Shown: positions 1-64,000, numbered from the stretch's first letter. The stretch: 64,000 bases of DNA from Bacillota bacterium (GCA_040753155.1 JBFMEU010000003.1:5045-69044); one strand, 5' to 3'. Notes: a model not told the origin generated them from the letters alone. Program-made: numbers and translations.

Positions 1-688
1 TGCGTTCGGGCCCGGCCTCGATCAGATGCGTTCCGCCAATAACTGCACGCACCCTGGGTATTCCGGTAAGGTCCACAGCATAATTGAGGATATTAACCAG
101 CCCGGAGTGGGCACAACCGGTTAGAATCACCAGCCCGTCCTGAACAGTTATTACTACGAATTGATCGTCCAGTAAAGGATCCACCCTGTAGCGGGCGCCC
201 TCCCTTACTAAATAGTAAGGGTTAACTATTTCAAAGGGTGTACGTCTGGGCACCTCGCCGCTAATAATGATTCCGGAGGCAACCTCCACCGGCTGCCGGG
301 ACATTTTAAACCGGGCCCCCCATTCCTCCAGGTTGCCCCAGGAGTGGGGAATGCCGATATATTTATGGCGGCCGCTGGAATCATATCTGTATTTGTCCTG
401 AAATATATAGGGGTGGGCAAAAACATCAACCGGGCCGTGCTTCAGAAGAAAGCTTTTTAACCCGCCGGTATGATCATAATGCCCGTGACTTATAGCTATA
501 AAGTCAAGCCCCTTCAGACTCAGCCCCAGTCGCCTGGCATTTAGCACCGGGGGGTAGCCCTGGCTGCAGTCAAAAATAAAGCGGTTGCCTCCGGCCTGAA
601 CCAGCAGGGACAAACCGTGCTCAGCAATCAGGCCGCGGACATGACAGCTGTCATCGGCAAGATTTGTAACTGTTACCTTATTGTACAT
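1..688 (-). CDS. MBL-fold metallo-hydrolase (C-terminus runs off the left edge)
   Basis: Absent from the ORF track because there is no stop in the window. Manual translation from the ATG (cat at 686-688) gives MYNKVTVTNLADDSCHVRGLIAEHGLSLLVQAGGNRFIFDC...DFIAISHGHYDHTGGL, which carries the HxHxDH-type metallo-beta-lactamase motif. Confidence 0.8.
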   Translation of the reverse strand, partial: MYNKVTVTNLADDSCHVRGLIAEHGLSLLVQAGGNRFIFDCSQGYPPVLNARRLGLSLKGLDFIAISHGHYDHTGGLKSFLLKHGPVDVFAHPYIFQDKYRYDSSGRHKYIGIPHSWGNLEEWGARFKMSRQPVEVASGIIISGEVPRRTPFEIVNPYYLVREGARYRVDPLLDDQFVVITVQDGLVILTGCAHSGLVNILNYAVDLTGIPRVRAVIGGTHLIEAGPER

Positions 689-736
689 ACCTGCCCCACC
701 TCTACACTATCCTGAAAATACATTTGTTTGGGGATC

Positions 737-869
737 TTATCACTGAACTAATCCGCCCTAAGACCCCCGCCTCTGTAGGCGGCGGGTTTCAAAGGGCGGT
801 TAAGTCCAGTATGGACTCGGCTAACATTCAGAGGGGGTTGAATCCCCCTCTGAATGAAGTCTCGTTCAA
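737..869 (-). repeat. Family A structured repeat, copy A1 (inverted relative to the other copies)
   Basis: Near-identical reverse complement of 1897-2029. It contains the 13-bp hairpin CATTCAGAGGGGG/CCCCCTCTGAATG. Its terminal TTGAAC supplies the TGA stop of the 866-1774 gene. Confidence 0.9.
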
Positions 870-1774
870 TGACGGGCAGGCGGGGTCAGATAACGTATCC
901 CGTCAGCAAGGCAAACCGGCTTAAAACCAAAATACTTTTCAACGGCATCAACATCCCCTATATTGTCCATATCCAGTTCCTTTAGTTCGACCATGGTTAC
1001 AGGCGGGTCCTTTAGAATACCAGCCATAAAAGGCGTCACCATCCGCATTACGGCCATGGGTATGGGCGCCTTGAACCTTTTCATCCCCCGCACCTGAAGG
1101 AGCAATTCCAGCATCTGACGGTAGCTTAGATGTTCCGGCCCCCCCAGGTCATAGATTCCGCCAATCAGATCAGGATTAGGCCAGGCTTTTAGAATACACT
1201 TTACAACATCCTCTACGGCAATGGGCTGGAATAAGGTGCGGCCACTACCAGGAACCGGCGCCAGGGGTGGTGGAAAAAAGCGCAAAGACTGCAGCAAACG
1301 ATCGAAAAAGCCAAAGCCTTCCCCATAGATTAAAGACGGCCGCAATATCGTCCACTCCAGACCGCTTTGCCGAACAGACTCCTCCCCCAGCCACTTGGAA
1401 TAAATATACCGGTACTCCGGACTGTTCCTTGCACCCATGGCGCTCAGGTGGATAAACCGGCGAACACCGGCCTGCCTCGCCTCAACAACAAGATTAATAG
1501 TTCCCTCAACATTAACCTTTTCAAAAGTATTACCGTCATGCTCGCGAATAATGGCCACCAAATGAATAATGCCCTCAACCCCTGCACAGGCCTCCCGCAG
1601 GCTTTTAGGGTCATTAATATCACCCTTGACCAACTCTACACCCTGTGGCAGGCCGGTCCTGGCACTGCCTGGATCCCGAACCATACAGCGCACAGGATAA
1701 TTTCCGGGCACCAGAGCCTTTATCAAATGTCTGCCTACAAAACCTGTCGCTCCAGTAACTAGTATCACCGACAT
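866..1774 (-). CDS. NAD(P)-binding SDR-family epimerase/dehydratase-like protein (NmrA/NDUFA9-like)
   Basis: 302-aa ORF. N-terminal Rossmann motif ILVTGATGFVGRHL. RBS GAAGGAGGG lies upstream of the ATG at 1774. Confidence 0.85.
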   Translation of the reverse strand: MSVILVTGATGFVGRHLIKALVPGNYPVRCMVRDPGSARTGLPQGVELVKGDINDPKSLREACAGVEGIIHLVAIIREHDGNTFEKVNVEGTINLVVEARQAGVRRFIHLSAMGARNSPEYRYIYSKWLGEESVRQSGLEWTILRPSLIYGEGFGFFDRLLQSLRFFPPPLAPVPGSGRTLFQPIAVEDVVKCILKAWPNPDLIGGIYDLGGPEHLSYRQMLELLLQVRGMKRFKAPIPMAVMRMVTPFMAGILKDPPVTMVELKELDMDNIGDVDAVEKYFGFKPVCLADGIRYLTPPARH

Positions 1775-1896
1775 TACCCTCCTTCACCCAAAAGGAAACA
1801 TCCTGTCCTGAAAATACATTTGCTCAGGGACGGATGCTTACCGGGTATTTTCATCCTCTGCTGGCACCGCTTCAGCGACATAGACGTCTAATTACC

Positions 1897-2029
1897 TTGA
1901 ACGAGACTTCATTCAGAGGGGGATTCAACCCCCTCTGAATGTTAGCCGAGTCCATACTGGACTTAACCGCCCTTTGAAACCCGCCGCCTACAGAGGCGGG
2001 GGTCTTAGGGCGGATTAGTTCAGTGATAA
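1897..2029 (+). repeat. Family A structured repeat, copy A2 (reference copy)
   Basis: 133 nt. Hairpin 1910-1941 has a 13-bp stem. Hairpin 1949-1963 pairs AGTCCA/TGGACT. Hairpin 1980-2000 pairs CCCGCC/GGCGGG and is enclosed by AACCGCCCT/AGGGCGG(A)TT (1965-2016). The closing pair is TGAAC/GTTCA (1898-1902 / 2018-2022). Confidence 0.9.
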
Positions 2030-2393
2030 AGCGTATCCTGACAGAATAATCTAATAAACATTGTGACTATAAATTAAATTTTCGACACTCTGGTATGATC
2101 TCCTTTTGAACAATCTTTTAAAACATACCACCGGAATCAAGATCCCAGATCTTTTTGTGGAAACAACCGGTAATTTAAAGGATTTTCTTAATTCTTCACG
2201 AAATTTAAGCTAGAAACAAAGCGCCGGAAGCCCGAACCCTGTGAACATACAGCCCGGCAAAAGGCTTTACAGCAATGACCAGGACGTCAGCCCATGGGTC
2301 ATTTTCTTTTAAGACATTTTTAAAAGCTAAATTGGGAATTATTTATTTAACTGCCCTTAACTGACAGTAAATTTGACTGCCTGGAAGGAATGA

Positions 2394-5590: not shown

Positions 5591-5763
5591 TATCTTCGCA
5601 CAGCCTGTAAGACCCCGCCCTCTTAGGTCGGGGTCTTACAGGCTGCAAACTCGAAATAAGTGCGACTAAGGTTTAGCGGTCAGGGGACACACCTCCTTCG
5701 GAGGAATGTCCCCAACGTATGGGTTAAAACCCCACCTGAACCAAGTCTTCTTTATCTTCGCAC
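5591..5763 (+). repeat. Family B structured repeat, copy B1 (with a 37-nt hairpin insert and a restart of the 5' end)
   Basis: Shares its core with 12203-12332 and 15464-15692. It has an extra perfect hairpin AGCCTGTAAGACCCCG/CGGGGTCTTACAGGCT. After the terminal TTTAT the first 8 nt (CTTCGCAC) repeat. Confidence 0.85.
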
Positions 5764-7974: not shown

Positions 7975-8353
7975 AAAAGCACGGCCGTAAGCGAGATTCT
8001 GTTTCGGTAGTCATCCATCTAGAAAATCCCGGCTTTCACCGGCATCTCCTCCCCTTTAACGGGGTGCCCCTACCCGCAGCAAAGCTGCCTATTTGGGTTG
8101 CACGCTGGCGGAGTTTACCCTTGCACTCACCGGTCACCCGGTGAAATGGTTTCTGTGGCACTTTATGGCTACTGGAAACTCCCAAGAGCCTCTTTGGCCG
8201 TCGTCAGGTCGCCCTGCCCCGGCTTGCGCCGGGCACCATTTTACACCGGCTTGTAAAGCCGCTGTGCGTGTCTCGACTTTCCTCTGCCTGCCGTTAACCA
8301 GCCCTGCAAAAAGCGCCTGATTCCAGCAAACAGCGACTACCCACCGTACTTTT
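7975..8353 (-). ncRNA. rnpB: RNase P RNA, bacterial type A
   Basis: The reverse complement contains the universal blocks AGAGGAAAGUC (P4 5' strand), GGUAAACUCCGCC, CAAAUAGG and CUAGAUGGAUGACUACCGAAACAGAAUCUCGCUUA. P2 pairs GGUAGUC/GACUACC. P1 pairs AAAAGUACGGU/GCCGUGCUUUU. The ends are approximate to about 5 nt. Confidence 0.9.
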
Positions 8354-8399: not shown

Positions 8400-8921
8400 T
8401 CAATGGCAAATAGAGCCAGCGTCGGTGCCCAGGAGCAGCCGAATTTCACCCCGGGCCACCATTTTCTTCAGGTCGTCCCGGGAGGCGCTGGTGAATACGT
8501 TGTCGTGCATAATGCCCGAACACTGGCTGCCAGCATAGATGGCAATTTTCTCCTCAGGCAACTCCTGGGAAATGTTTTCAGCCAGCCAGAAAACGGAGTC
8601 GTAATATTGGGAGAAAACAATGCATCCCATTTCCAGCCAGCCCCTGTTCAGCAGGCAGTCCATGACTACATCATACTTGGGGTCCCGCTCATTAACCTTT
8701 AGGGAGGCTACAAACCTTTGCAGCACCAGCTGCTCTTCGGGGGTAAGGCTCTTCATTTCCGGGCTGATGGGCGCATCGTCCTCCTCATCATCTTCAACCA
8801 CTACACACTGCCAGTCCCGCAGCATTTTTTCAGCCGTCAGGCGTCCGGCATAGATGGTGCTGCCCACCCGGCGCAGCAGCAGTGTTTTCAGGAAACCGGC
8901 CGCCTTTACCCGGTTGCCCAA
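8400..8921 (-). pseudogene. C-terminal fragment of an SNF2/DEAD-like helicase (truncated within motif V)
   Basis: Contains FLKTLLLRRVGST, then EEKIAIYAGS, then GEIRLLLGTDAGS followed by a stop. The N-terminal ATPase lobe and the distal C-terminus are missing, and the upstream sequence continues in other frames. Confidence 0.6.
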
Positions 8922-9633
8922 AAGGCTGGGGTCAGACGGATGGCATCCTCTTCCCGCTCGCCTAACAATTCAACTTTCTTCAGGTAGGGCTCGTTTGGTG
9001 TTTTTTCAACAGGCCCAGCAGCTTGTAGGTGTCCCCGGTGGTTTGGGGATACTGTTCCCGCTTCCAGACAGCCGGCCGGGCACCGGGTCGAGTTCTTCGG
9101 GTTCGGGACCACCTCCCCCGCCACCGCGCCATCTAATCTCCAGCCGGTGCTCATCAGATATAAGACCGCCTTTTTCGGCCACCGCCAGCACCAGCAAGGT
9201 GCCCGGGGGCACCGCAAAGGGTCCGTCATAGCTGCCTCCGGACAGCTTGGGGCTTGAGCCGTCGGTGGTGTAGCGGATGGGTGCCGGGGGCGCAGAGCGA
9301 AGTTCTACCATCTTTTCACCGCCGGGGCCGTGGAAGGTCCTTGATTTAATGGTGATCCGGTTGCGCCAAACCACCGGGTCCCCGGCCTGGTGCTTGCCGG
9401 CGGAGTCAATGCACAGGAAGGATACCTCCAGTTCACTGGTTTTAAAGGCCCGGGCATCTGCCACCGGCAGCGATGCCGTCCGGGTGCAAACCTCCCTGGT
9501 AGGGCTCGTAAATCACCAGGGTTACCTTGTCGGCCACAACCCTTATTTCATCCAGGGCGGGCAGCACCTGCAGGTCCTGGTACTGAAAGGCTTCCAGTTT
9601 TTTCAAGACGCAGGTTTTACCGTAAATCATCAA
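8922..9633 (-). pseudogene. frameshifted remnant of a large gene carrying a chitobiase/Fn3-associated-type motif (IRYTTDGSSP)
   Basis: Three overlapping minus-strand ORF pieces (9442-9633, 9006-9464, 8906-9229) read contiguously only if two frameshifts are allowed. No intact start is present. Confidence 0.4.
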
Positions 9634-9695
9634 CTAGTGACCCTTTAAAAACTGGGGCTTGTCCACATACACGCATCTTTGGATAACTGATGTTT

Positions 9696-10013
9696 TTATA
9701 AAGGCTTACCTTTTGAAATGATTTCATCATAAAGAAACTGGCCTTGTTTAACATTTTTATATTCGTCCAGGGAATAGGGCCTTGGAGAAATATCCAGGTC
9801 AATATCTTCACTAATTTCTTTGAGCAATATTGCTTCTTCCAGGTAATCCCGGCCAAAGTCAGGGGAAATGATAGCAATATCAATGTCGCTGTCTTCAGTT
9901 ACAGTCCCTTTGGCGCAGGATCCAAACAGGATGGCCTTCTCAACACGAATGTTTCTATTCCTCAGGGCCTGTATGTACTTACTCACGATTACTTCAACAT
10001 ACCTTTTAGCCAT
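9696..10013 (-). CDS. minimal nucleotidyltransferase (MNT-type, antitoxin-like)
   Basis: Motif LFGSCAKG-x8-SDIDIAI (GS-x10-DxD). AAGGAGG lies 7 nt upstream of the ATG at 10013. The ORF-track start at 10067 is an over-extension. Confidence 0.85.
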   Translation of the reverse strand: MAKRYVEVIVSKYIQALRNRNIRVEKAILFGSCAKGTVTEDSDIDIAIISPDFGRDYLEEAILLKEISEDIDLDISPRPYSLDEYKNVKQGQFLYDEIISKGKPL

Positions 10014-10390: not shown

Positions 10391-10715
10391 ATCCTTCCAT
10401 ACTTTACCTGATTGCTGTTAAAAAGATAAACCTGACGTTTAAAATGAAAAATGCATCCGTGAGTAATGTACAAATTATACTTCTAATTCTATCCGCATTG
10501 AATTAAAGAGTCAAAAAATAACTAAAGAGCCTTAATCCCAGCCATTGAATTAAGATGTTTGATAAAGGCATCAGCTTGCTCTATTAATGCAGGTGGATTT
10601 GTTCCAAAAGGTGGTTTAGAACTCTCCCTGCACGGTGACAGTGGTTAAATGAGGAGCTATAATGATGATAGGGAGTATCAGCGTGGGCATTGGCCAGGTA
10701 TTATATCTACGCCCT

Positions 10716-10742
10716 TTGAACGAGACTTCATTCAGAGGGGGG
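10716..10742 (+). repeat. Family A fragment (5' 27 nt only), copy A3
   Basis: TTGAACGAGACTTCATTCAGAGGGGGG matches the A consensus and then diverges. Confidence 0.7.
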
Positions 10743-53204: not shown

Positions 53205-53218
53205 ATCTCATATCCTCC

Positions 53219-54265
53219 TTATTTGCCGCAACCCCGGAGAAATCTTTCCAGGGCCAGGGAAAGGTTCTTGGTCATATAGTCCACCACGGTAACCATCCTG
53301 GCGTAGTCCATCCGGGTGGGTCCCAGCACACCCACAGAGCCCTGGGGCCTGCCGTCCACCGTGTAGGTTGCCATGACCATACTACATTCCCGCATCTGGT
53401 CATGGCTGATTTCGCCGCCAATGCGCACCGTAACGCCACTGACGCGGCAGCCGTCGGACATGATGTTGGAAACCAACTTTTCTTGCTCCAGGAGGCTAAG
53501 TAAAGTTTTAACTTTCTCCACATTGTGAAATTCTGGCTGGTTTAGGATATTAAATACCCCGCCTAGATAGATTTTATCCTTAATATCCGGGGCCAGGCTG
53601 TCACTGACCAGTTCCAGAGCCATATTCAATATCTGATCGTGTTTGGCCAACTCAAAATAGATTTCCTTAAGCAGGGTCATCTTGATGCTTTCCATGGTCC
53701 GCCCCTGCAATTTAGCGTTTAGCACAGTAGAAATGGTATCTAGATCCCCCTGGGTGATACTTTCGGAAATCTCAATCATCCGGTGGTGAACGGTGCTGTT
53801 GTCCATCACTACAATCAACAACGCCTTTTCCGTCGTCATTTGCACCAACTGGATATGCCTGAAGGCGGTGTTTCCCGTCTGAGTTGACAGTACCACCGCG
53901 GCGCAGTTGGTGAGCTGGGCCAGGAGTTGCCCTGTATATTGAATAATTTCCCCGACGCCTTTAACCTTGGCCTCATACCTCTGACGGACCAACTCCTGCT
54001 CATCGTTGGTAAGCTCTTCCCGCTGCATTAAATAGTCCACGTAATAGCGGTAGCCCCGCTCCGAGGGTATCCGGCCGGCCGATGTGTGAGGCTGCTCAAT
54101 ATAGCCCGTTTCCTCCAGGTCGGCCATTTCATTGCGTATAGTTGCCGGGCTGATCCCCAAACTGTATTTCCGCGCTATGGTCCGTGAACCAACCGGCTCA
54201 GCAGTAGCAATATAGTCGTGGATAATGGCCATGAGAATCTGCTGCTTCCGGCTGTCCATCTTCAT
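53219..54265 (-). CDS. hrcA: heat-inducible transcription repressor HrcA
   Basis: Motifs RKQQILMAIIHDYIATAEPVGSRTIA and VLGPTRMDY. Confidence 0.95.
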   Translation of the reverse strand: MKMDSRKQQILMAIIHDYIATAEPVGSRTIARKYSLGISPATIRNEMADLEETGYIEQPHTSAGRIPSERGYRYYVDYLMQREELTNDEQELVRQRYEAKVKGVGEIIQYTGQLLAQLTNCAAVVLSTQTGNTAFRHIQLVQMTTEKALLIVVMDNSTVHHRMIEISESITQGDLDTISTVLNAKLQGRTMESIKMTLLKEIYFELAKHDQILNMALELVSDSLAPDIKDKIYLGGVFNILNQPEFHNVEKVKTLLSLLEQEKLVSNIMSDGCRVSGVTVRIGGEISHDQMRECSMVMATYTVDGRPQGSVGVLGPTRMDYARMVTVVDYMTKNLSLALERFLRGCGK

Positions 54266-54283
54266 CCCTGAGCACCCCCCTTT

Positions 54284-54310
54284 GTTAGCACTCTCTTTAA
54301 TTGAGTGCTA
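54284..54310 (-). promoter_or_regulatory. CIRCE operator (HrcA binding site)
   Basis: Perfect TTAGCACTC-N9-GAGTGCTAA. A candidate promoter, TTGACA (54352-54347) with TATTTT, lies just upstream on the minus strand. Confidence 0.95.
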
Positions 54311-54348
54311 ATACCCTAGCTAAAAAATAGCACTTATTATGCCGTTTG

Positions 54349-56148
54349 TCAAGGGAAATCAATGCTTAACACAGCCATGAAGGCTTCTTGGGGAATTTCC
54401 ACGTTCCCCACCTGCTTCATCCGCTTTTTACCTTCCTTCTGCTTCTCCAAAAGCTTGCGCTTACGGGTGATGTCGCCGCCGTAGCACTTGGCCAGCACAT
54501 CCTTGCGCCGGGCTTTGACGGTTTCCCGGGCAATGATTTTATTGCCGACAGCCGCCTGGATGGGTATTTCAAACAAGTGCCTGGGGATCAATTCCCTGAG
54601 CTTTTCGGCCAGGGCCCGGCCCCGCTGCTCCGCTTTGTTCCGGTGCACTATGCTGGACAGGGCGTCCATTACCTCCCGACCGATGAAGATGTCCATTTTC
54701 ACCAGCTTTGAGCGGCGGTAACCGGTCACCTCGTAGTCCAGGGAGGCGTAGCCCCGGGTGCGGGACTTCAGGTGGTCGAAAAAGTCGTAGATTATTTCGC
54801 TCAAAGGCAGGTCATAAGTCAGCATAACCCGGTTTTCACCCAGGTACTCCATATTGTTAAAGACACCCCGCCGGTTCTGGCATAACTCCATGACAGGTCC
54901 GACATAGTCCTTGGGCGCCATGACGGTGGCCCGGACATAGGGCTCCTCCATGAATTCAATTTTGCCTGAGGGCGGCAGCTTGGAGGGATTTTCAACCATC
55001 AGCACATCACCGCCGGTGGTGGTAACCCGGTACACCACGTTGGGGGCGGTAGTGATCAGGCTCAGGTTGTACTCCCGCTCCAGGCGCTCCTGGACGATTT
55101 CCATGTGCAACAGCCCCAAAAACCCGCAACGAAAACCAAAGCCAAGGGCCTCGGAGGTTTCCGCCTCGTAAACCAGGGCGGGGTCGTTTAGCTTGAGCTT
55201 GTCCAGGGCGTCCCTCAGGTCCTCATAATCCATGGTTTCCACAGGGTATAGGCCGCAGTAAACCATGGGGGTGATTTTTCGATAGCCCGGCAAAGGCTCT
55301 TTAGCTTGCCGGCGGGCATCGGTGATGGTGTCCCCCACCCGGGTGTCCTTGACATTTTTCATACTGGCGGACACAAAGCCCACCTGCCCCGCCCGCAGTT
55401 CGTCGGTCAGGGTCATGGCCGGGCGAAAAATGCCCACCTCATTAACCTCAAACTCCTTGCCCGTGGACATCATCCTGATAGGCAGGCCCTTTTTCAGGAC
55501 CCCTTCCATCACCCGGACATAAGCAATGACCCCCTTGTAGGAATCATAGTGGGAGTCAAAAATCAGCGCCCGCAAGGGGGCCTGCTCATCACCCCGGGGA
55601 GGCGGGATCTTGCTGACAATTTGCTCCAAGATCTCCTCCACACCGGCGCCGTCCTTGGCCGAGGCCATAACCGCACCGGACATATCCAGGCCAATAACGT
55701 CCTCAATCTCTTTTTTAACCCGTTGGGGATCGGCCGCGGGCAGGTCAATTTTATTAATTACCGGAATGATTTCCAGGTTGTGGTCCAGGGCCAGGTAGAC
55801 GTTGGCCAGGGTCTGGGCCTCAATGCCCTGGGCGGCGTCCACCACCAAAAGCGCCCCCTCACAGGCGGCCAGACTCCGGGACACCTCGTAGGTAAAGTCA
55901 ACATGGCCCGGTGTGTCAATCAGGTTAAGCTGGTATTCCCGGCCGTCCCTGGCCCGGTAGATCAGACGCACCGCCTGGGCCTTAATGGTAATACCCCGCT
56001 CCCGCTCCAGATCCATCTGGTCCAGCACCTGCTCGGACATCTCCCGCTCGGTGAGAGTACCGGTAAACTCCAGCAAGCGGTCGGCCAGGGTCGACTTGCC
56101 GTGATCTATGTGGGCAATAATACAAAAATTGCGTATCCGTTCTTGCAT
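54349..56148 (-). CDS. lepA: translation elongation factor 4 (LepA)
   Basis: [20 protein letters not shown], 599 aa. Confidence 0.97.
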
Positions 56149-56191
56149 ATTCTCAAAAAGGCCTCCTTATTGGCGCAACAACTCATACCTT

Positions 56192-56390
56192 GTAACTACT
56201 CAGGTATTCAGAATTCAGGAGTCAGGAGTCAGAATACCCCGAAACTATGCTTCCAGCAATTTACTAACCTCTTGCAAGAGAAGTTTTGTTTCGTAAGTAT
56301 CACCATATCCAAGATCCTTCGTAAGTATCAAGTAATATCGGCATTCTTCAACAGAACCTTGTGCAATGTTTAAAAAACGCGAGTAGTTAC
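56192..56390 (+). mobile_element. Family C non-autonomous element C6 (retains the C-terminal ~45 codons of the four-helix-bundle gene), TSD CATACCTT
   Basis: An 8-bp direct repeat sits at 56184-56191 and 56391-56398. Termini are GTAACTACTCAGG / CGAGTAGTTAC. On the minus strand the interior reads RFLNIAQGSVEECRYYLILTKDLGYGDTYETKLLLQEVSKLLEA*. Confidence 0.9.
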
Positions 56391-56437
56391 CATACCTTTG
56401 CATTATAACACTTTGGGCAGGCCTCCGAAAAGGTATA

Positions 56438-56481
56438 TATTCAGTGAAACCGGTGTTAAGGCACGGCGTTATCACCGCTCA
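56438..56481 (+). repeat. Family D left-end fragment (D4)
   Basis: TATTCAGTGAAACCGGTGTTAAGGCACGGCGTTATCACCGCTCA, after which homology ends. Confidence 0.8.
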
Positions 56482-56487
56482 AAAGAA

Positions 56488-57609
56488 TCAATCTCTTACC
56501 TGACCGGTTTCCGCCAGATACACGGCCAGCACTTTTGCCAGCAAACGGGCGCTGGCCACGGCCTCCCCGGTTGAATTGGCCACGGTGCCCATCTCCAGCA
56601 GGATGGCGCCCGGGTGCAAGTACTGGTTGTAACGGCCCTCCTTAACCCGGACCCCCAGGGAAAGCCCCGGGTACATACTATCCATTTTGTCCGACAGGCC
56701 CCGGGCAAAGTTGTAATTTTGCCGCCATTCGGGGTGGGAGGCCCGGGCGTCGGAGCCGATGACAATTAAAATGGGGGCCACTTCCCGGCCGTTTACGGTA
56801 ACCAGGCTGTTCTGCCTGGACTTGCCGGCATCCCGGTGGATATCCAGCACAGTCACCAGGTGCGGGTGCTGGGCCAGCAGTTCCCGCGCCACTTTTTCCG
56901 ACTCGGCATAAGAGGTGCTGTAAACGGCGTCGCAAATCTGGTCCGATCTGGCCACCCGGATGCCGTAGCGGGTTTCCAGTTCCTCCTGCAGGGCGGCGGC
57001 CACGGTGACCACTCCCCCCCGCTTGCCGTCAAGACGTTCCATGCCGTCGGTGAGAGCATAGGTCTCCCCGGTGTGGGTGTTGTAAATGGCCACCAGGCAG
57101 TGCTTGGAAAGCTCCGGCGGCCCTGCTGCCTCCTCTAATTCCTCAGGCTCTTCCGCCGGCGGCGGGGAAGCGCCGGCGGAAGACACCGGCCCCTGCTCGG
57201 TGGCCAGGGCCAGCAGGGATATTTCGCTGTGCAACAAATCCAGGGGCTCACTGAAGCGCAGCTGAAAAGCAGTAAGCGCCCCGGTGACGGCATAACGGGG
57301 GGTCACGGCCGAGGGCGCATCATCCGCCGCCCCGGACCGGGCCAGCAGCGGCATGGCCAGTAGCAGCACACCCCGGGGATCCTGCTCATCCATAACCAGA
57401 GACTGCCAAACGATTCTTGGTACGCTGTCTTTAAGCGCCATTGCCGGGTGGCCTAACTGGTTGATGATAATAAAGACCAGGCCCGGGATAATAATTATAA
57501 GCTTAAGCAAGATGGCCGGCCGAAACTTATTAGCTCTTCTGATGTTCCCCGTACAGGCCCGCTGCATGAAAATACCCCCCATAATGGCAAAATACTGTCC
57601 ATAGTACAA
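56488..57609 (-). CDS. spoIIP: stage II sporulation protein P
   Basis: C-terminal amidase-like domain IYNTHTGETY...VLDIHRD...LLEMG. Position next to lepA is conserved. The start is uncertain. Confidence 0.85.
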   Translation of the reverse strand: MYYGQYFAIMGGIFMQRACTGNIRRANKFRPAILLKLIIIIPGLVFIIINQLGHPAMALKDSVPRIVWQSLVMDEQDPRGVLLLAMPLLARSGAADDAPSAVTPRYAVTGALTAFQLRFSEPLDLLHSEISLLALATEQGPVSSAGASPPPAEEPEELEEAAGPPELSKHCLVAIYNTHTGETYALTDGMERLDGKRGGVVTVAAALQEELETRYGIRVARSDQICDAVYSTSYAESEKVARELLAQHPHLVTVLDIHRDAGKSRQNSLVTVNGREVAPILIVIGSDARASHPEWRQNYNFARGLSDKMDSMYPGLSLGVRVKEGRYNQYLHPGAILLEMGTVANSTGEAVASARLLAKVLAVYLAETGQVRD

Positions 57610-57658
57610 GTATATATGCCTTTACTGCGGGGGGTATTCCTTTGTTATTACTCTGCCC

Positions 57659-58009
57659 TTAGCGCAGCACGGTAGGTACAACGGCATCAATAATGCCAAT
57701 TACGAACGCCGCAATAAGCGCTCCCACCAGGGTAACTGTAAGCAGACCGGGAATAATAAACTGGGCCACATAAATAACTACCGCGGCTGTGATAAAGCCA
57801 ACCAGGCCCCGGCTCTGGGGAGTAATCCGATCCCCCAGCAGGGCCTCGGCCACATAACCCAGCAGCGCAATGACAGCAGCGGCAATGAGCGCCCCGATAA
57901 AACCGCCCTGCACCACAAATCCCGGGGCCAGCCAACTAACAACAATCAATACAAGAGCAGAAACAACAAACCTGATGGCCAGTCCAATCCATTGCATTAA
58001 CGATGTCAC
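57659..58009 (-). CDS. DUF360 / phage-holin-4-like small membrane protein (YvlD-like)
   Basis: 116 aa, four hydrophobic segments, family-typical length. Confidence 0.6.
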   Translation of the reverse strand: MTSLMQWIGLAIRFVVSALVLIVVSWLAPGFVVQGGFIGALIAAAVIALLGYVAEALLGDRITPQSRGLVGFITAAVVIYVAQFIIPGLLTVTLVGALIAAFVIGIIDAVVPTVLR

Positions 58010-58126
58010 CTCCTTAATATAAAATCATTCAATATATTTGACCAAATTATCCATCTGTATACAACGCCCTTGCTTTTTTTTACTGTGCGTGATAAAATTG
58101 TTGCTGCCGGGGGAGGTGAAAACGCA

Positions 58127-58393
58127 ATGGCCAACATAAAATCCGCAGTTAAAAGGGTTAAAATAGCTCAAAAGCGGAGACTTCGCAACGCCCGCATCAA
58201 GTCCACCGTCCGGACCTCCATTCGCAAATTCGAGGATGCCTTGACCGCAGCCGGCCGGGAAGAGGCCCAGACAAGTTTGCGCAAGGCTCTGATCATGCTT
58301 GATAAAGCTGTTACCAAGGGTGTTTTACATAAAAACACCGCAGCCCGCAAGAAATCCCGCCTGACCAAAAGATTCAACAAAACGGCGGGGTAA
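58127..58393 (+). CDS. rpsT: 30S ribosomal protein S20
   Basis: MANIKSAVKRVKIAQKRRLRN. GGGGGAGGTG lies upstream of the ATG at 58127. Confidence 0.95.
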   Translation: MANIKSAVKRVKIAQKRRLRNARIKSTVRTSIRKFEDALTAAGREEAQTSLRKALIMLDKAVTKGVLHKNTAARKKSRLTKRFNKTAG

Positions 58394-58441
58394 CAAAAAG
58401 TTTCCCTGGCAAACCATTTTTGAATACAGACTAAATAAAGT

Positions 58442-58473
58442 GTTGCCCGCAAAAAAGGGACAGGCAACTTTTT
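58442..58473 (+). terminator. terminator of rpsT
   Basis: GTTGCC..GGCAAC followed by TTTTT. Confidence 0.55.
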
Positions 58474-58515
58474 CGCAAAGCGAAAATAGTAGCCTGTCTT
58501 TTTGGTCTAAGCCAC

Positions 58516-58571
58516 CTGAATTACGCTGGTTTTCTCATTCTGACTCCTGACTTCTGACTCCTGACTCCTGA
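58516..58571 (+). repeat. Family C right-end remnant (C7) fused to the 3' end of holA
   Basis: CTGAATTACGCTGGTTTTCTCATTCTGACTCCTGACTTCTGACTCCTGACTCCTGAG. The terminal GTAGTTAC is missing. Confidence 0.8.
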
Positions 58572-59599
58572 GATTGGCAGAGCTTTAAAACCAGCATTTC
58601 CATGGCCGGGTAGAAGTCCAGGCGTCCGGTCTTGGTCTTGACATCAATTTCCCCCAGGCTGTCCAGTAACTCCAAAAGCTGGGCAGTTGTGAAGTTGCGC
58701 CCCTGCTCCTGAACCTTTTTGGCCACAAAGGGGTGCGCCCCCAGCCGGGCGGCCAGTTCGGGCCCGGAACAGCCCTCCCGCCGCAGCTCCCCGGCCAGTA
58801 AAATAAGCCGGAACTGCCTGACCACCATAGCCAGGATGTAGTGGGGCTGCACCCGGCATAAAAGTAAATCCCTGATCCCCTGCAACGCTCTGGCGCACTG
58901 CTTCTCCCCGATGGCGTCAACCACCGCAAAGATACTGTCCTCCAGCTTTTCCGGCACCAGGTCCCTGACCTCCCGGGGCGTGATGGTTGTACCGGGAGCT
59001 GTATAGTTAATCAACTTCTCCATTTCCTGATACAAGCTGATCAGGCTTTTTCCGCGCCGGCGCAGCATTTCTTCCGAGGCCTCCCGCTGGATGCCCCGGC
59101 CCTCCTGCCGGGCCCGCTGCTCCAGCCAGCGGTAGATCTCCGTTGGCTTTAACAGACTGAACTCCACCACCCGGCCCTTAGCGGCCACCAATTTGTAAAT
59201 TTTCCGGCGCTTGTCCACGGCTTCCCCGGCATCGAAAACCAGGCAGGTTTCTGCCGCCGGCTGCTCCAAATAGCTCCGCAGCAAGGCCTCCCCGGGCCTT
59301 TCCCCGGACTCCCCGGCCCCGGCCCTGGCAGGGCGAAACAGCCCGGCCTGGCGGACAATGACCAGGCGCCTGGCGGCCAGCAGCGGCGGAAGGCCGGCAG
59401 CAGCCACAATGGCGTCCGGGCCGGTGCCTTCCCCGTCCAGGAGGTCCAGATTAAATTCCGCTGTGGCCGGTTCCAGCAAGATCTCCTTAAAACGGGCCAG
59501 GGCCTGTTCCCGCAGGTACACCTCAGGGCCGTAAAAGAGATACACGGGGGCAATATTCCCCCGCTTTAAGCTGTCCAGTAAATCAAGATAGTACTTCAA
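58535..59599 (-). CDS. holA: DNA polymerase III delta subunit
   Basis: 354 aa. Starts PVYLFYGPEVYL and is in the conserved position. The last 13 codons (QSQESGVRSQESE) are encoded by repeat C7. Confidence 0.9.
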   Translation of the reverse strand: MKYYLDLLDSLKRGNIAPVYLFYGPEVYLREQALARFKEILLEPATAEFNLDLLDGEGTGPDAIVAAAGLPPLLAARRLVIVRQAGLFRPARAGAGESGERPGEALLRSYLEQPAAETCLVFDAGEAVDKRRKIYKLVAAKGRVVEFSLLKPTEIYRWLEQRARQEGRGIQREASEEMLRRRGKSLISLYQEMEKLINYTAPGTTITPREVRDLVPEKLEDSIFAVVDAIGEKQCARALQGIRDLLLCRVQPHYILAMVVRQFRLILLAGELRREGCSGPELAARLGAHPFVAKKVQEQGRNFTTAQLLELLDSLGEIDVKTKTGRLDFYPAMEMLVLKLCQSQESGVRSQESE

Positions 59600-59615
59600 A
59601 TGGCAACCCCACCAT

Positions 59616-59915
59616 CTATAGCTTTTGCTCCACCGCCGCCACCTTGCCCGCCATGGTTACGGGCCGATCCCGCCGGTCGTCAACCTTGATGGTAGTCAGC
59701 ACCCGGACCACCCCGGCCTTGAAGGGCTCCTCGTGCATTTGCCGCGCCAGTTCCAGCACCCGGTCAAGATCGCCCTCAATGATGGTTCCCATGGGAGTTA
59801 ACTGATAGCTAACACCCTCCGCCCCCTGCAGTAACCTGACACAGCCGGCCACATAATCGCTGAGCCCGGCGCCCGTGGTACCCAGGGGCACTACACTAAC
59901 TTCAACCACCGCCAT
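59616..59915 (-). CDS. MTH1187/YkoF-family (DUF77) thiamine-binding-like protein
   Basis: MAVVEVSVVPLGTTGAGLSDYVA...MGTIIEGDLD. The ATG at 59915 follows AAGGGGGG. The ORF-track start at 60050 lies inside moaC. Confidence 0.75.
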   Translation of the reverse strand: MAVVEVSVVPLGTTGAGLSDYVAGCVRLLQGAEGVSYQLTPMGTIIEGDLDRVLELARQMHEEPFKAGVVRVLTTIKVDDRRDRPVTMAGKVAAVEQKL

Positions 59916-59931
59916 ACTGCAACCCCCCTTA

Positions 59932-60441
59932 TTATGGATTCCAAAGCTCCTCGCCCTCCCGCCTGTACTCACCGCTCCGGCCGCCGGATTTGCTGACCAG
60001 CCGTATTTTTTCCACCCGCATACCCTTATCCACAGCCTTACACATATCATAAACGGTCAGGGCTGCCACGGAGACCGCCGTCAGCGCTTCCATTTCCACC
60101 CCGGTCTTGCCGGTGGTACGCACCCTGGCTTCAATTTCTACCGTGTCGGGCTGCCGCAGCCGGAAATTTACGTTAACCCCGGTCAGATTGATGGGATGGG
60201 CCATGGGAATCAGACGTCCGGTTTCCTTGGCCGCCATAATGCCGGCCACCCGGGCCACCCCCAGTACATCACCCTTGGTCATACCACCGGACGCCACCAG
60301 GGTCAAGGTCTCCGGCTGCATGATAATCTCGCCCCGGGCCACGGCCTCCCGCAGGGTCTCCCCTTTTTCGCTAATGTCCACCATGCGGGCCCGGCCGCCG
60401 GCATCAAAATGGCTAAGCCCGCTAAAACTATCATTTTCCAT
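59932..60441 (-). CDS. moaC: cyclic pyranopterin monophosphate synthase MoaC
   Basis: Motifs [17 protein letters not shown] and MCKA.DK. Confidence 0.95.
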
Positions 60442-60745
60442 GGCTCTTACCCCCTACAGAAGATCCTGTCTTTATGGTCCCAAGGCCCGGCGATATTATG
60501 CCTTAACTATTCGTTGCCAGAAATGCAAAATCCTTTTCCGCAAAACAGGGCGACATAATTTTCAATAACCCTTGCCTGGCTGACCCGGCAGGATTTCAAG
60601 GCCTAGGGTAGAAGTATTTAGAAGTTATCCCGGGAAATGGCCCCGGAAGGGTAATTGTTCAATCCACGAAGATAAAACACTGTGGTGGTGTTTTAGAGCC
60701 ACTTCAGGGGACACTACCAGATGAGCATAAGGAGCGATGTATTAA

Positions 60746-61045
60746 ATGTCCCAGATGAAGGAACTGCCCCGGGGCAACCGGATCATCATCAGCGTACTGG
60801 GTCCCGACCGGGTGGGCATTATCGCCGGCGTTGCCAACGTGCTGGCCGCCAACAACATTAACATCCTGGATATCAGCCAGACCATTTTGCAGGAATTTCT
60901 GGTCATGGTACTCATTGCCGACATGGAAGGAAGCAAAATAGACCTGGCCACCGTCAAGGAACTGCTCAACGCCAGGGGCCGGGAACTGGGTGTGCGCATC
61001 GACGCCCAACACGAGGACGCTTTTAGTTTCATGCACCGCATTTAA
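60746..61045 (+). CDS. ACT-domain protein (UPF0237 family)
   Basis: IIISVLGPDRVGIIAGVANVLA..NINILDISQT. It is paired with the downstream UPF0210 gene. Confidence 0.85.
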   Translation: MSQMKELPRGNRIIISVLGPDRVGIIAGVANVLAANNINILDISQTILQEFLVMVLIADMEGSKIDLATVKELLNARGRELGVRIDAQHEDAFSFMHRI

Positions 61046-61186
61046 TATGCGCTAAAACGATGGGCAGGCAGGCAACATCCCACCGGGCCAAAAGGTTTCA
61101 CGCCGAAAGGACCATGACCGGGAGGCATAAGCCACTACCGGCCACTCAGGATTTTAACGGAACTGAAATTGGAGGTTGAATCCGCA

Positions 61187-62545
61187 ATGCTGACCATGCA
61201 GGAAATACTTGAAACAATAAAAATGGTTCAGGAGGAAAACCTGGACATCCGCACCATCACCATGGGTATCAGCCTGCGGGACTGCAGTCACCCGGACGCT
61301 GACATCGCCTGCCGCAAAATTTATGACAAGGTCACCCGCCTGGCCGGCAATCTAGTCCGGGTGGGGGAGGATATTGCCCGGGAATACGGCGTTCCCATTG
61401 TGAACAAGCGCATTTCCGTGACCCCCATGGCTCTGGTGGCCGAGCCCAGTTCTCCCGCAAACTATTTTAAATTTGCCCAAACCATGGACCGGGCGGCGGA
61501 AACTGTGGGGGTCAACTTCATTGGGGGCTTTTCCGCCCTGGTACATAAGGGCTTTACCACCGGTGACGGCAACTTAATTGAAGTTATTCCCGCCGCCCTG
61601 GCGGAAACGGAAAGGGTCTGCGCCTCGGTAAACGTGGCCACCACCAAGGCGGGCATCAATATGGACGCAGTTTACCGGATGGGCCGGGTGATCAAGGAGA
61701 CCGCCCGGCTCACCGCGGACCGGGACGGGCTGGGCTGCGCCAAACTGGTTGTATTTGCCAACGTCCCCGAGGATAATCCCTTCATGGCCGGGGCCTTCCA
61801 CGGTGTGGGGGAGCCCGAGTGCGTCGTCAACGTGGGAGTTAGCGGCCCGGGGGTGGTCAAAAATGCCGTGGAGCGGGTCAGGGGGGCTGATTTTGGCGCC
61901 CTGGCGGAAACGGTAAAAAAGACCGCTTTCAAGATCACCCGCATGGGCGAGCTGGTGGGCCGCACAGCGGCCGGCCGGCTGGGTGTGCCCTTTGGGATTG
62001 TGGACATTTCCCTGGCCCCCACCCCGGCGGTGGGCGACAGTGTGGCCGAAATTTTGGAGGCCATGGGCCTGGAGCGCTGCGGCGCCCACGGCACCACCGC
62101 CGCCCTGGCGCTGCTAAATGACGCCGTTAAAAAGGGCGGGGCCATGGCCTCATCTTACGTGGGCGGGCTGTCCGGGGCCTTTATCCCCGTCAGCGAGGAC
62201 GCCGGCATGATCCGGGCGGTGGAGGAGGGTGCCCTGAACATCGCTAAACTGGAAGCCATGACCTGCGTTTGCTCCGTGGGCCTGGACATGATCGCGGTGC
62301 CGGGGGACACCCCGGTGGAAACCCTGGCCGCCATCATTGCCGATGAGGCCGCCATCGGGGTGATCAATCAAAAAACAACCGCTGTAAGAATTATCCCCGC
62401 CCCGGGTAAAGTGGTGGGGGATTTCGTGGAATACGGCGGGCTCTTGGGGCGGGCCCCGGTAATGGCGGTAAATCCCTTTTCAGCCGTTGACTTCGTGCGC
62501 CGGGGCGGGCGGATTCCCGCCCCCATCCACAGCTTGAGCAACTAA
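61187..62545 (+). CDS. UPF0210/DUF711 family protein (PFL-like fold, function unknown)
   Basis: [30 protein letters not shown] is a typical N-terminus. The ATG at 61187 follows GGAGG. Confidence 0.85.
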
Positions 62546-62550
62546 GGCCA

Positions 62551-62563
62551 CCTGAATAGTAAC
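62551..62563 (-). repeat. solo 13-nt terminus of a Family C element (inverted orientation)
   Basis: CCTGAATAGTAAC is the exact reverse complement of the left TIR tip GTTACTATTCAGG. Confidence 0.5.
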
Positions 62564-62599
62564 ACCAGTTGCAATTACACCGGCAGGAGGTTCAAATAA

Positions 62600-64000
62600 A
62601 TGTTATACCGGAGTACCAGGGGAGAGGACCTGTCCGTGTCATCTTCCGAAGCCATCAAAATGGGCCTTGCCCCTGACGGGGGCCTGTTTGTGCCCGCCAG
62701 CCCGGTTACCGTCAGCAGTGATTTCCTGGCCGGCCTGGTTAAAGCAAGCTACCACCACCGGGCCAGGGCCATCCTGGAGCTTTTCCTGACGGATTTCACC
62801 CCGGAAGAACTGGACGGCTGTGTTGCCGGGGCATACAGCAGCGAAAAATTTAACCATCCGGACATTGCGCCGGTGGTCATGCTAAACAACCGGGAGTATA
62901 TCCTGGAACTCTGGCACGGCCCCACCTGCGCCTTTAAGGACATGGCCCTGCAAATACTGCCCCGGCTGATGCCCCTGGCGGCAACCAAAACCGGCGAGCA
63001 GGACGAGATCGTGATTCTGGTGGCCACCTCAGGAGATACGGGCAAGGCAGCCCTGGAGGGCTTTATGGATGTGCCCGGGACCCGGATCATCGTATTCTAC
63101 CCGGAAGAAGGAGTAAGCCAGGTTCAAAAAACACAAATGGTGACTCAGGAGGGCCGCAATGTCAGCGTGGTGGCTGTAAGGGGAAACTTTGACGACGCCC
63201 AGACCGGGGTTAAGGAAATTTTCAGCGACCGGGCTCTCAGCCGGTCCCTCAAACAGTCCGGCTACCGCTTTTCTTCGGCCAACTCCATCAACTGGGGACG
63301 CCTGGTGCCGCAGATTGTTTATTACTTTTCCGCCTACCTGGACCTGATCAGGGACGGGGAAATAACCGCCGGCCAGCCGGTTAACTTTGTGGTGCCCACG
63401 GGCAATTTCGGCAATATTCTGGCCGGCTGCTATGCCCGCCGCATGGGCCTGCCGGTGGGACGCCTGATCTGCGCCGCCAACCGCAACAACGTGCTTACGG
63501 ATTTTATCCGCACCGGCGTCTATGACCGGAACCGCGCCTTCCACCGGACCACCTCACCGTCCATGGACATTCTAATCTCCAGCAACCTGGAGCGGCTCCT
63601 TTTTGAAATAACCCGCAGCCCCGGCCAGGTGGGTGATTGGATGCGGCAACTGCGGGAAACCGGCCGCTATACAGTTGACCCGGCCACCCGCCAGGAAATT
63701 CAGGACATTTTCTGGTCGGACTTTGCCGATGATTTGGAAACTGCCCGGACCATCAGGGAAACCTACCTCAAGCACGGTTATGTCATGGACACTCACACCG
63801 CCGTGGGCCGCAACGTTTATACCAAATACCGGCAGGAAACCGCGGACGGCGCCAGAACCATCCTGGTTTCCACAGCCAGTCCCTTTAAGTTTAATGAGAG
63901 TGTGGTCAGGGCCATTCTGGGGCCGGCAGCCATAAGCGGCAAAACTGAGTTTCAGCTGCTGGAAGTGTTATCCCGGACCACCGGCCTGACCATCCCCCGG
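62600..64000 (+). CDS. thrC: threonine synthase (3' end beyond the window)
   Basis: Absent from the ORF track because there is no stop in the window. AGGAGG-9nt-ATG at 62600. Translation reads MLYRSTRGEDLSVSSSEAIKMGLAPDGGLFVP...HGPTCAFKDMALQ (PLP lysine)...ATSGDTGKAA. Confidence 0.9.
   Translation, partial: MLYRSTRGEDLSVSSSEAIKMGLAPDGGLFVPASPVTVSSDFLAGLVKASYHHRARAILELFLTDFTPEELDGCVAGAYSSEKFNHPDIAPVVMLNNREYILELWHGPTCAFKDMALQILPRLMPLAATKTGEQDEIVILVATSGDTGKAALEGFMDVPGTRIIVFYPEEGVSQVQKTQMVTQEGRNVSVVAVRGNFDDAQTGVKEIFSDRALSRSLKQSGYRFSSANSINWGRLVPQIVYYFSAYLDLIRDGEITAGQPVNFVVPTGNFGNILAGCYARRMGLPVGRLICAANRNNVLTDFIRTGVYDRNRAFHRTTSPSMDILISSNLERLLFEITRSPGQVGDWMRQLRETGRYTVDPATRQEIQDIFWSDFADDLETARTIRETYLKHGYVMDTHTAVGRNVYTKYRQETADGARTILVSTASPFKFNESVVRAILGPAAISGKTEFQLLEVLSRTTGLTIPR

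Follow-up and report, generated by a model that had tools for sequence, protein, structure and literature searches.

Of four families of small repeats (A to D) that mostly lie the same way round in this stretch of a Bacillota bacterium genome, D alone keeps a strict orientation when further sequence of the species is sampled. We analysed the whole 64,000-nt stretch (the window), and its pattern is largely an ordinary bias of an already described kind, orientation bias of IS families in Firmicutes being already known. The best overall explanation, which we hold at about even confidence, combines selection on D within operons with sampling and labelling effects in the other three families.

The window represents one replichore of a Firmicute chromosome, the rpoD-dnaG ... 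hrcA-grpE-dnaK-dnaJ-lepA region. The GC skew of its plus strand is negative in every 4-kb subwindow, and 48 of the 61 genes called (79%) are on the minus strand, which is thus the leading strand. Our gene calls match those of JGI for a locus of a near-identical strain (L001) and fit the Pfam results for 20 flanking genes. We recovered the coordinates of the repeats (Table 1), with plus-oriented copies numbering 4/5 for A, 3/3 for B, 7/7 for C and 4/4 for D, together with one inverted 15-nt scrap of C; by label, 18 of 19 window elements are co-oriented. These counts, and the leading-strand assignment, bear out an earlier reading made from the sequence alone (the sequence-only reading), as do two of its corollaries, namely that the gene carried by C is co-directional with host genes in the window and that at sites flanked by minus-strand genes A, B and D enter host transcripts as their reverse complements. 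The plus label of each family is arbitrary, so the statement that all four families point the same way rests on arbitrary consensus labels, and the testable quantity is co-orientation within a family. Tested in this manner, the window gives p values of 0.375 (A), 0.25 (B), 0.016 (C) and 0.125 (D), with a Fisher's combined p of 0.028, or of 0.22 with copies shorter than 100 nt set aside.

Table 1. Repeat copies, repeat fragments and an IS66-family gene fragment in the window (strand relative to the consensus of the sequence-only reading)
Feature	Position	Strand	Remarks
A copy	737-870	-	only copy inverted relative to the consensus
A copy, 134 nt	1897-2030	+	TTGAACGAG...GTTCAGTG + ATAAA; divergent intergenic region
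A scrap, first 26 nt alone	10716-10741	+	
A copy	31275-31408	+	convergent intergenic region; C right-end fragment directly after
A copy	32950-33083	+	flanked by two minus-strand genes
B copy with 5′ hairpin module	5594-5755	+	CTTCGCAC...GTCTTCTTTAT; after CTAT; convergent region past ftsK
B copy, short form	12208-12332	+	after TTTAT; between rpoD and tRNA cluster
B copy with extra ~110-nt module	15469-15692	+	after TTTAT; between dnaG and HD-domain gene
IS66-family transposase (TnpC) N-terminal fragment	19402-19737	+	NF033517, E = 2.4e-10; zf-IS66
C right-terminus scrap	19756-19778	+	CTCCTGACTCCTGAGTAGTTAC; directly after IS66 fragment
C copy	25163-25368	+	3′ part of IVP gene on minus strand; 8-bp TSD ATTTTTTA
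C right-end fragment	31406-31470	+	
C copy	46199-46377	+	5′ part of IVP gene on minus strand; 8-bp TSD ATCTTTTT
C minimal copy, two ends only	48549-48659	+	8-bp TSD GTTCAAAA; dnaK-dnaJ spacer
C copy	56192-56390	+	8-bp TSD CATACCTT; gene remnant on minus strand
C right-end fragment	58524-58572	+	overlaps holA 3′ end
C left-terminus scrap, inverted, 15 nt	62550-62564	-	ACCTGAATAGTAACA; between two plus-strand genes
D copy	28404-28709	+	between T-box leader 28764-28980(-) and glyQ 27499-28377(-)
D copy	34829-35133	+	between dgkA and cdd; TSD AAGCCGCT/AAGTCGCT; right end overlaps dgkA stop codon
D copy	48802-49106	+	1 nt past dnaK stop codon; TSD CCTATTTT
D left-end fragment, 49 nt	56433-56481	+	

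Judged from their sequences, the four families constitute two kinds of small non-autonomous mobile elements, and are hence not unrelated as had been supposed: both ends are common to B and the reverse complement of A, while C and D have GTAA-type termini and 8-bp TSDs in common. A and B appear IS200/IS605-like, being hairpin-rich, free of TIRs and TSDs, and inserted 3′ of TTTAT. Specifically, B and A (reverse complement) have their LE and RE hairpins in common, and the similarity score of neither end is equalled in any of 500 shuffles. The ends of A (TTGAACGAG..., ...GTTCAGTG) do not match one another in inverted form, and neither do those of B (CTTCGCAC..., ...TCTTCTTTAT), so that both families lack a TIR. 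Of nine B copies, five have TTTAT as their 5′ flank and the others differ from it by one mismatch; at its 3′ side, B itself invariably ends in TTTAT. Insertions nested in C have occurred without duplication, giving the junctions GCGGTTTAT / B / CGTTTATC and CGTTTAT / A (reverse complement) / CCATGGCG. Folding energies are −72.5 kcal/mol for A and −52.5 kcal/mol for B (z = −8.6 and −6.0 against shuffles), the two strands of A folding alike (−72.5 and −75.5 kcal/mol).

When the homologous ends are used to set the orientation, A and B run in opposite directions within the window. [quoted passage not shown] The earlier proposal of single-stranded (IS200/IS605-type) transposition is a sensible candidate for A and B, given their lack of TIRs and TSDs. 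Two of the five window copies of A lie between co-directional genes, and these two are in mutually opposite orientations. The copies at 737-870 and 1897-2030 form an inverted pair bracketing an epimerase gene, 866-1726(-), whose stop codon the former overlaps. Neither the window nor about 300 kb of related loci contained a cognate Y1 (HUH) TnpA with A/B ends. A Y1_Tnp gene in a locus of a different organism (L100) was considered as a partner of A and B and rejected, its ends being unrelated.

C and D are probably IS66-like, as suggested by their inverted GTAA-type termini and 8-bp TSDs. The TIRs start with GTAACTACTCAGG / GTTACTATTCAGG in C and with GTAAGTATTCAG / GTATATATTCAG in D, and match the canonical GTAAGCG only over GTAA(G); those of C are built of heptamer repeats. 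In addition to the TSDs in Table 1, C has the 8-bp TSDs AAAATAAG and ATCCACGG, and C and D together provide eight cases plus one empty site. C is a cassette with a gene for a 121-aa four-helix-bundle protein of the 23S-rRNA-IVP family, or remnants of it; the copy at 56192-56390 keeps the last ~46 codons (PF05635, E = 1.4e-8; TIGR02436). In a single instance, the TnpC fragment reads towards a C terminus that begins 18 nt onward. A search from this fragment for an autonomous IS66 element with C or D ends returned only short fragments that lack the ends of C and D. Tracing full-length IVP proteins led to other organisms, which are without A, B and D and in which a full-length C cassette was shown, and a genome-collection scan with an 18-nt C motif (TGGTTTTYTCATTCTGAC) gave, among the matches listed, chance ones in unrelated taxa. 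Shortly past the window end, a full copy of C retains the window orientation despite plus-strand neighbours.

D is a 305-nt near-palindromic foldback with near-identical ends (108 pairs, −144 kcal/mol), and its internal arms are strikingly conserved, even among relatives. The copy at 48802-49106 is missing in a 99.97%-identical strain (L001; empty site CACCTATTTTTTATTCCC), which shows that it is a recent insertion and that D has been mobile recently. Every D copy seen in the species lies between two co-directional genes, in the same strand of the mRNA, often abutting the upstream stop codon. The copy located between the T-box leader and glyQ is thus within the glyQ 5′ UTR, and one window copy separates dnaK from dnaJ; elsewhere, D is lodged between methylmalonyl-CoA mutase subunits or two moeA genes, or follows rsmH. 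Among plus-strand genes just past the window end, a D fragment is inverted, i.e., it follows the genes. A six-frame chimeric translation of D, used as a protein query for ORFs inside it, gave zero matches. An outward promoter at the left end of D (TTAACA-16-TATACT) was rejected as a general explanation, since it needs a flanking base and occurs in one copy only.

The wider sample adds about 250 kb of the same species to the window. One scan with a chimeric query yielded 55 loci, mostly from Ga0048257, of which L057 corresponds to window positions 31427-33069 at 99.45% identity and also has the A copy at 32950-33083; L001 and L099 are from the 99.97%-identical strain. These are fragmented short-read assemblies that break at repeats, and some contigs have one flank in common (L041/L042, L061/L062), so that the following counts are approximate. 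Relative to flanking genes, copies oriented as in the window and reversed number 12:0 for D (p = 5e-4; Pfam-verified contexts), 9:4 for C, 16:10 for A and 6:5 for B, the last three being individually non-significant. Most copies of each family are co-oriented in the window, and in the wider sample the bias is strict for D alone. Outside the window, A and B come near the 50:50 ratio that the sequence-only reading had named as contrary to its pattern, and D does not. With relatives included, A reaches 26:13 (p = 0.053; co-oriented with genes or G-rich skew). Scored by the sign of the GC skew rather than by gene strand, A and C look more biased (about 20:6 and 15:2), with most contigs in the 1-9 kb range, where GC skew mainly mirrors gene strand and is an unreliable proxy of replication; given these ratios, a replication-linked component may be underestimated.

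We propose that the apparent co-orientation of four families would mostly reflect arbitrary strand labels, small numbers and the placement of 79% of genes on one strand. Because the two ends of D are nearly identical, we ascribe its bias to purifying selection acting once a copy has inserted: those landing in operons in the reversed orientation would disturb read-through or expression and would be lost. Selection had been put forward earlier for elements with TIRs and TSDs, and is a sensible candidate for both C and D. An intrinsic terminator as the cause of the D bias is a weak hypothesis. A consensus scan places hairpin-plus-T-tract motifs on the D plus strand only, with stems of 5 bp, while an energy-based scan gives marginal candidates on both strands, and D relatives that have lost both T-tracts are oriented 3:4. 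As to the other families, any bias of A is weak at most and of the lagging-strand-template kind, the gene of C tends less strongly to run with its neighbours, and B has no orientation tendency.

Coupling to the replication fork could instead set the bias of all families at insertion, with A and B integrating single-stranded into the lagging-strand template, like IS608 and ISDra2, and C and D being oriented by an asymmetric transpososome and the beta sliding clamp, as proposed for many Firmicute IS families. This explanation, which we consider unlikely, would fit the placement of all window elements on one replichore with 18/19 co-oriented by label, the position of the A top strand (about 26:13 overall) and the full C copy that keeps its orientation among plus-strand genes past the window end. 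It would also agree with the published family-specific biases in Firmicutes (PMC3971601) and with the targeting of the lagging-strand template by IS608 as related in PMC5027513. However, B has the ends and TTTAT target of A, yet its top strand is opposite in 3/3 window copies, with 6:5 overall; A is only 16:10 within the species, and exceptions in C amount to 4/13. As for D, its near-symmetric ends would give a transpososome little orientation to read, its fragment among plus-strand genes is inverted, and its relatives are found both ways round. Replication direction and gene direction are confounded in our data, that D fragment being the one element that discriminates between them, with the direction of replication past position 64000 taken as an assumption; D may also have a replication-coupled insertion bias.

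In a second alternative, no biological bias would exist, and the pattern would come from chance, arbitrary labels, fragments taken as copies and non-independent copies such as composite C::A units. The window p values, the non-significance of A, B and C in the wider sample and the recurrence of C::A composites with one same junction in three loci (L041, L044, L089) all suit such an account. We nevertheless regard it as very unlikely in view of the 12:0 ratio of D across independent Pfam-verified gene contexts, the location of 12/12 D copies within co-directional gene pairs, and the ratio of A with relatives included. It is highly improbable that the elements are functional plus-sense RNAs, antisense to host genes and held in one orientation for that reason. 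A, B and D do fold far better than shuffles, and the internal arms of D are conserved even in relatives, but folding is equally good on the minus and plus strands, and the mobility signatures (TSDs, the empty site and nested insertions) account for the repeats without RNA function. Furthermore, Rfam gave zero matches for A, B, C and D, whether cut at the gathering score or relaxed to an E of 5. Wobble-creating substitutions, which had been read as favouring the plus sense, are, in a larger set of copies, about equally common in both senses (plus- versus minus-sense G·T events 20 and 17 in A, about 18 and 17 in D, 1-2 and 3 in B). A further reading, quite unlikely in our estimation, makes D a mobile orientation-dependent intra-operon module whose minus-sense copy would act on the processing, stability or translation of flanking cistrons; it would explain the arms conserved across species, the abutment to stop codons and the 12:0 ratio. 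Candidate sites for such a module are dnaK/dnaJ, T-box leader/glyQ and the mutase subunits.

From the orientation bias of mobile DNA, inferences are drawn on single- versus double-strand movement and on the policing of insertions by genomes, and one local window easily suggests a false general rule. Strictly oriented inside essential operons, D would be a clean system in which to separate insertion bias from selection, and the natural occurrence of near-identical strains with and without a D copy makes it more useful still. Our analysis also yields working definitions of ends, target and TSD for four families, apparently undescribed so far, of an uncultured syntroph-like Firmicute.

The orientation bias of IS relative to replication is family-specific and strongest in Firmicutes, with p < 1e-6 for IS200, about 1e-4 for IS200/IS605 and 0.019 for IS66a (Gomez et al. 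2014, PMC3971601). Many IS families, with IS66 among them, are thus biased in Firmicutes, contradicting the expectation of the sequence-only reading that TIR/TSD elements should not show replication-linked bias. Among members of IS200/IS605, IS608 and ISDra2 target the lagging-strand template (Ton-Hoang 2010, as cited in PMC5027513). Our case likewise involves a Firmicute host and several families mostly co-oriented in one replichore. It differs in that the elements are non-autonomous and 110-310 nt long rather than full IS, that the strictest family is the near-symmetric TIR element D, which tracks operon context, and that A and B, although related and both IS200/IS605-like, do not agree in orientation.

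The IS66 family has IRs of 20-30 bp starting with GTAAGCG and 8-bp direct repeats, as quoted in PMC11946415. C and D resemble IS66 and its MITEs in their 8-bp TSDs and in termini that start with GTAAC, GTTAC, GTAAG or GTATA, and in C the likeness extends to the TnpC fragment abutting a C terminus (19402-19778). Unlike in IS66, the termini of C and D match GTAA(G) only, C has heptamer-repeat TIRs and a passenger four-helix-bundle gene, and no autonomous copy with C/D ends was recovered.

Non-autonomous elements derived from IS200/IS605 include palindrome-associated transposable elements (PATEs), to which the REP/REPIN-RAYT systems are related. A and B share with these the lack of TIRs and TSDs, strong subterminal hairpins and one-strand insertion 3′ of a short motif (TTTAT). 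They differ in that no Y1 transposase sharing their ends turned up and in an orientation bias that is weak in A and absent in B; compared with REPs, A and B are larger and more modular, with nested arm expansions in B.

Other short repeats with TIRs or hairpins that occupy spacers within operons and are co-transcribed with the adjoining genes are the Correia elements of Neisseria, RUP/BOX of pneumococci and ERIC/REP of enterobacteria; their documented effects on termination, processing or promoters depend on orientation. D has no sequence relationship to these repeats and is known from sequence alone; it is, at about 305 nt, an almost full-length foldback.

Among the four families (A to D) of small non-autonomous mobile elements in this stretch, only family D has a robust orientation bias, and the explanation we favour for it is selection inside operons. 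Repeat finding and BLAST for each family reproduced the copy counts of the sequence-only reading exactly: plus in four of five A copies (one of the plus copies a 26-nt scrap), all three B copies, all seven C copies, including three end fragments, and all four D copies, including one 49-nt scrap. The statement built on these counts, that the four families point the same way, is empty of content, because the plus label is arbitrary for every family. The testable quantity is co-orientation inside each single family, for which the window gives p values of 0.375 (A), 0.25 (B), 0.016 (C) and 0.125 (D), with a Fisher's combined p of 0.028 for all window copies and 0.22 for copies of at least 100 nt only. 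Just two A copies out of five have co-directional genes on both sides, and these two are mutually opposite in orientation.

The window is a segment of a Firmicute chromosome carrying rpoD, dnaG, ftsK, lgt, glyQ, hrcA-cpn-grpE-dnaK-dnaJ-prmA, lepA, spoIIP, holA and four tRNAs. Genes were called by codon likelihood, trained on Pfam-supported genes and concordant with JGI calls on contig L001. The plus-strand GC skew is negative in all 4-kb windows and 48 of 61 genes lie on the minus strand, bearing out the earlier assignment of minus as the leading strand. The dnaK operon includes a thermosome-type chaperonin gene; archaeal-like chaperonins at this place in the operon are known in Carboxydothermus and its relatives. 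Two low-GC islands carry toxin-antitoxin and defence-like genes (HEPN, HicB-like, a fusion of Phd with an IS3 HTH fragment, PIN, DUF6036) and the IS66 fragment.

To the window we added 55 loci (233 kb) from a metagenome scan, whose chimeric query joined A, B and D in stop-free translation and was used in each of its three parts, together with two contigs (L001 and L099) of a 99.97%-identical strain. Most scan loci come from project Ga0048257, and one of them matches window 31427-33069 at 99.45% identity, so that these loci are conspecific with the window or derive from a very near relative. BLAST located all four families, and the orientation of each copy was compared with that of the adjoining gene or genes; copies between convergent or divergent genes were excluded, and contigs with a flank in common were merged. 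Pfam bore out 20 of 20 flanking genes checked, both as real genes and in their called strand. Within the species, window included, the ratio of copies oriented as in the window to reversed copies is 12:0 for D (two-sided p=5e-4), 9:4 for C (p=0.27), 16:10 for A (p=0.33) and 6:5 for B (p=1). The claimed bias thus stands as a set of window counts but was overstated as a phenomenon, being robust for D only. With relatives from other metagenomes, A reaches 26:13 (p=0.053); D relatives from other metagenomes divide 3:4. B has the ends and target of A, yet is unbiased. For C there is a moderate tendency for the internal gene to run with its neighbours, with exceptions at L061, L073, L083 and a copy past the window end, and at L112 in other taxa.

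Family D is a 305-nt near-perfect foldback, with internal arms that are strongly conserved, relatives included. All 12 copies are flanked by co-directional genes, the known contexts being the glyQ 5' UTR 3' of a T-box leader, dgkA-cdd, dnaK-dnaJ, the two methylmalonyl-CoA mutase subunits, two moeA genes and a position downstream of rsmH. Several lie directly against the stop codon of the upstream gene or extend over it. At glyQ, a 306-nt element is wedged between the T-box leader and the start codon. Contig L001 (JGI, metagenome 3300040748) matches window 46334-64000 at 99.97% identity, yet the D copy between dnaK and dnaJ (see table) is absent from it, and its empty site reads CACCTATTTTTTATTCCC. 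Window and L001 thus form a natural filled/empty pair within an essential operon. In relatives from other metagenomes (about 83% identity), long internal stretches are invariant, the termini and central loop are divergent, and both orientations relative to genes occur.

A rival, less favoured account of the D bias is insertion coupled to replication. In Firmicutes specifically, many IS families, IS66 among them, have a documented orientation bias with respect to replication, for which a link to the beta clamp has been made (PMC3971601); this corrects the earlier premise that elements with terminal inverted repeats and target-site duplications should be free of such bias. In addition, gene strand and replication direction are inseparable in short contigs. 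The D ends, about 80% identical over 40 nt, would nonetheless give a transposase little basis to choose an orientation, and past the window end, where genes lie on the plus strand, a D fragment is inverted, that is, in step with the genes, while the full C copy beside it is not inverted. We therefore favour post-insertion selection, by which copies would survive only in the orientation that lets the operon be expressed. In a consensus scan, sites with a hairpin and T-tract occur on the D plus strand only, and relatives in which both T-tracts have been lost are found either way round. The stems are short, however, and marginal candidates on both strands emerge from an energy-based scan.

A separate argument held that G-U changes favour a plus-sense RNA. 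Among 25 distinct A, 10 D and 6 B copies, with consensus-wobble pairs set aside, the events in predicted stems that give plus-sense G·T and those that give A·C (minus-sense wobble) are about equal in number (A, 20 versus 17; D, about 18 versus 17; B, 1-2 versus 3), and A folds equally well on either strand. Neither these stem substitutions in A, D and B nor the strand folding of A gives evidence of a functional plus-sense RNA.

Judged by their terminal signature, C and D are probably IS66-type elements. Their inverted termini start GTAAC/GTTAC (C) and GTAAG/GTATA (D), continue with TATTCAG/TACTCAG in both, and are flanked by target duplications of 8 bp (eight read); GTAA-type ends combined with 8-bp repeats characterise IS66 (PMC11946415). 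The terminal inverted repeats of C are runs of heptamers (GAGTCAG/AAGTCAG), the source of the Shine-Dalgarno sequence AGGAG and the start codon ATG of its passenger gene, which encodes a 121-aa four-helix-bundle protein of the 23S-rRNA-IVP family (PF05635, TIGR02436) on the minus strand of the earlier consensus. In the window only deletion remnants of this gene are present, and full-length C copies exist outside it. Full-length cassette proteins with 77-93% identity occur in MAGs labelled Bacillota, Clostridia, Desulfotomaculaceae, Phosphitispora, Oscillospiraceae, Verrucomicrobiota and Lentisphaerae, and a Syntrophales MAG holds a remnant with identical start and heptamers. The sequences suggest that C is a non-autonomous gene cassette that has ends of IS66 type and has been transferred widely. 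At two loci, C and D fragments are adjacent or fused, in a relative orientation opposite to that in the window; such adjacency is consistent with the two families sharing a type of target or a transposase.

Families A and B are hairpin-dominated and have neither terminal inverted repeats nor target-site duplications. All B copies terminate ...GTCTTCTTTAT, and their 5' flank is TTTAT or differs from it at one position. Such variation in the flank is not matched by variation at the end of the element itself, so that TTTAT is a target motif and not a duplication. A/B-type ends read TTTAT|CACTGAAC... or CTTCGCAC.... Copies nested in family C provide clean before/after sites, with no duplication, on GCGGTTTAT|CGTTTAT|CTATGG: B inserted after the first TTTAT (L073), and reverse-complement A after the second (L041, L044 and L089). 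The C::A composite appears to be copied as one unit; composites with identical junctions recur, so not every A copy is an independent event. Reverse-complement A and plus-strand B have in common a left-end hairpin (TAAGACCCCGCC..TCT.TAGG) and a right-end hairpin with linker (GGGGTT.AA.CCCC..CTGAA..AAGTCT), with scores matched by 0 of 500 shuffles at either end; A and B are therefore related. When oriented by this homology on the top strand, A lies on minus in four of five window copies and B on plus in three of three, so that these two families, said to point the same way, run in opposite directions. In three places an inverted pair of A copies encloses one small gene (for an NAD-epimerase, a TetR regulator or a 57-aa ORF); these pairs may form composite units or just mark hot spots. 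B is modular, with symmetrically expanded hairpin arms, and in some copies a further module of about 110 nt adds a second hairpin, GGGGACA...TGTCCCC.

Coordinates of features in the window and in metagenome loci (L numbers)
Feature	Location	Strand	Remark
Family A inverted pair	window 737-870 and 1897-2030	minus and plus	
Family A inverted pair	L083:2-77 and 827-907		
Family A inverted pair	L099:8139-8272 and 8701-8834		
Class B RNase P RNA	window 7983-8348	minus	
Low-GC islands	window 9600-11600 and 18300-20900		GC 0.45-0.47
Family B, extra module	window 15469-15692		
IS66 TnpC N-terminal fragment	window 19402-19737		C right terminus 18 nt further on
C passenger-gene remnants	window 56192-56390, 46199-46377, 25163-25368		
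T-box leader	window 28764-28980	minus	upstream of glyQ; 76 bits (Rfam gathering score 93), E=1e-14
Family D, absent from L001	window 48802-49106		
Empty D site	L001:17030-17042		
Chaperonin gene (Cpn60_TCP1, 524 aa)	window 51630-53204	minus	hrcA/grpE interval
Family C inverted 15-nt terminus	window 62550-62564		neighbours are plus-strand genes
Family C cassette outside the window	L100:9880-10390; L039		
A nested in C	L044:120-446, L041:216-440, L089:2327-2510		
B nested in C	L073:5093-5483		
Adjacent or fused C and D	L073:1373-1565		
Adjacent or fused C and D	L001, locus 1648-1985		past window end
Family B, three tandem half-arms per side	L087:2829-3021		
Family D relatives	L091:6647-6951, L092:3122-10122, L082/L085, L086		other metagenomes

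IS200/IS605-type elements have as hallmarks hairpins near their ends and the insertion of a top strand 3' of a short motif (PMC5027513), and A and B, from their ends and target sites, behave like non-autonomous members of this type; a cognate Y1 transposase for A and B was looked for and not found in the window or in about 300 kb of related loci. The four families, previously taken as unrelated, are therefore two pairs, A and B by homology and C and D by shared IS66-type traits, rather than four independent witnesses of bias. That mobile elements of Firmicutes can be biased in orientation is already well established; families A to D are new, and the kinds to which they belong are already known.
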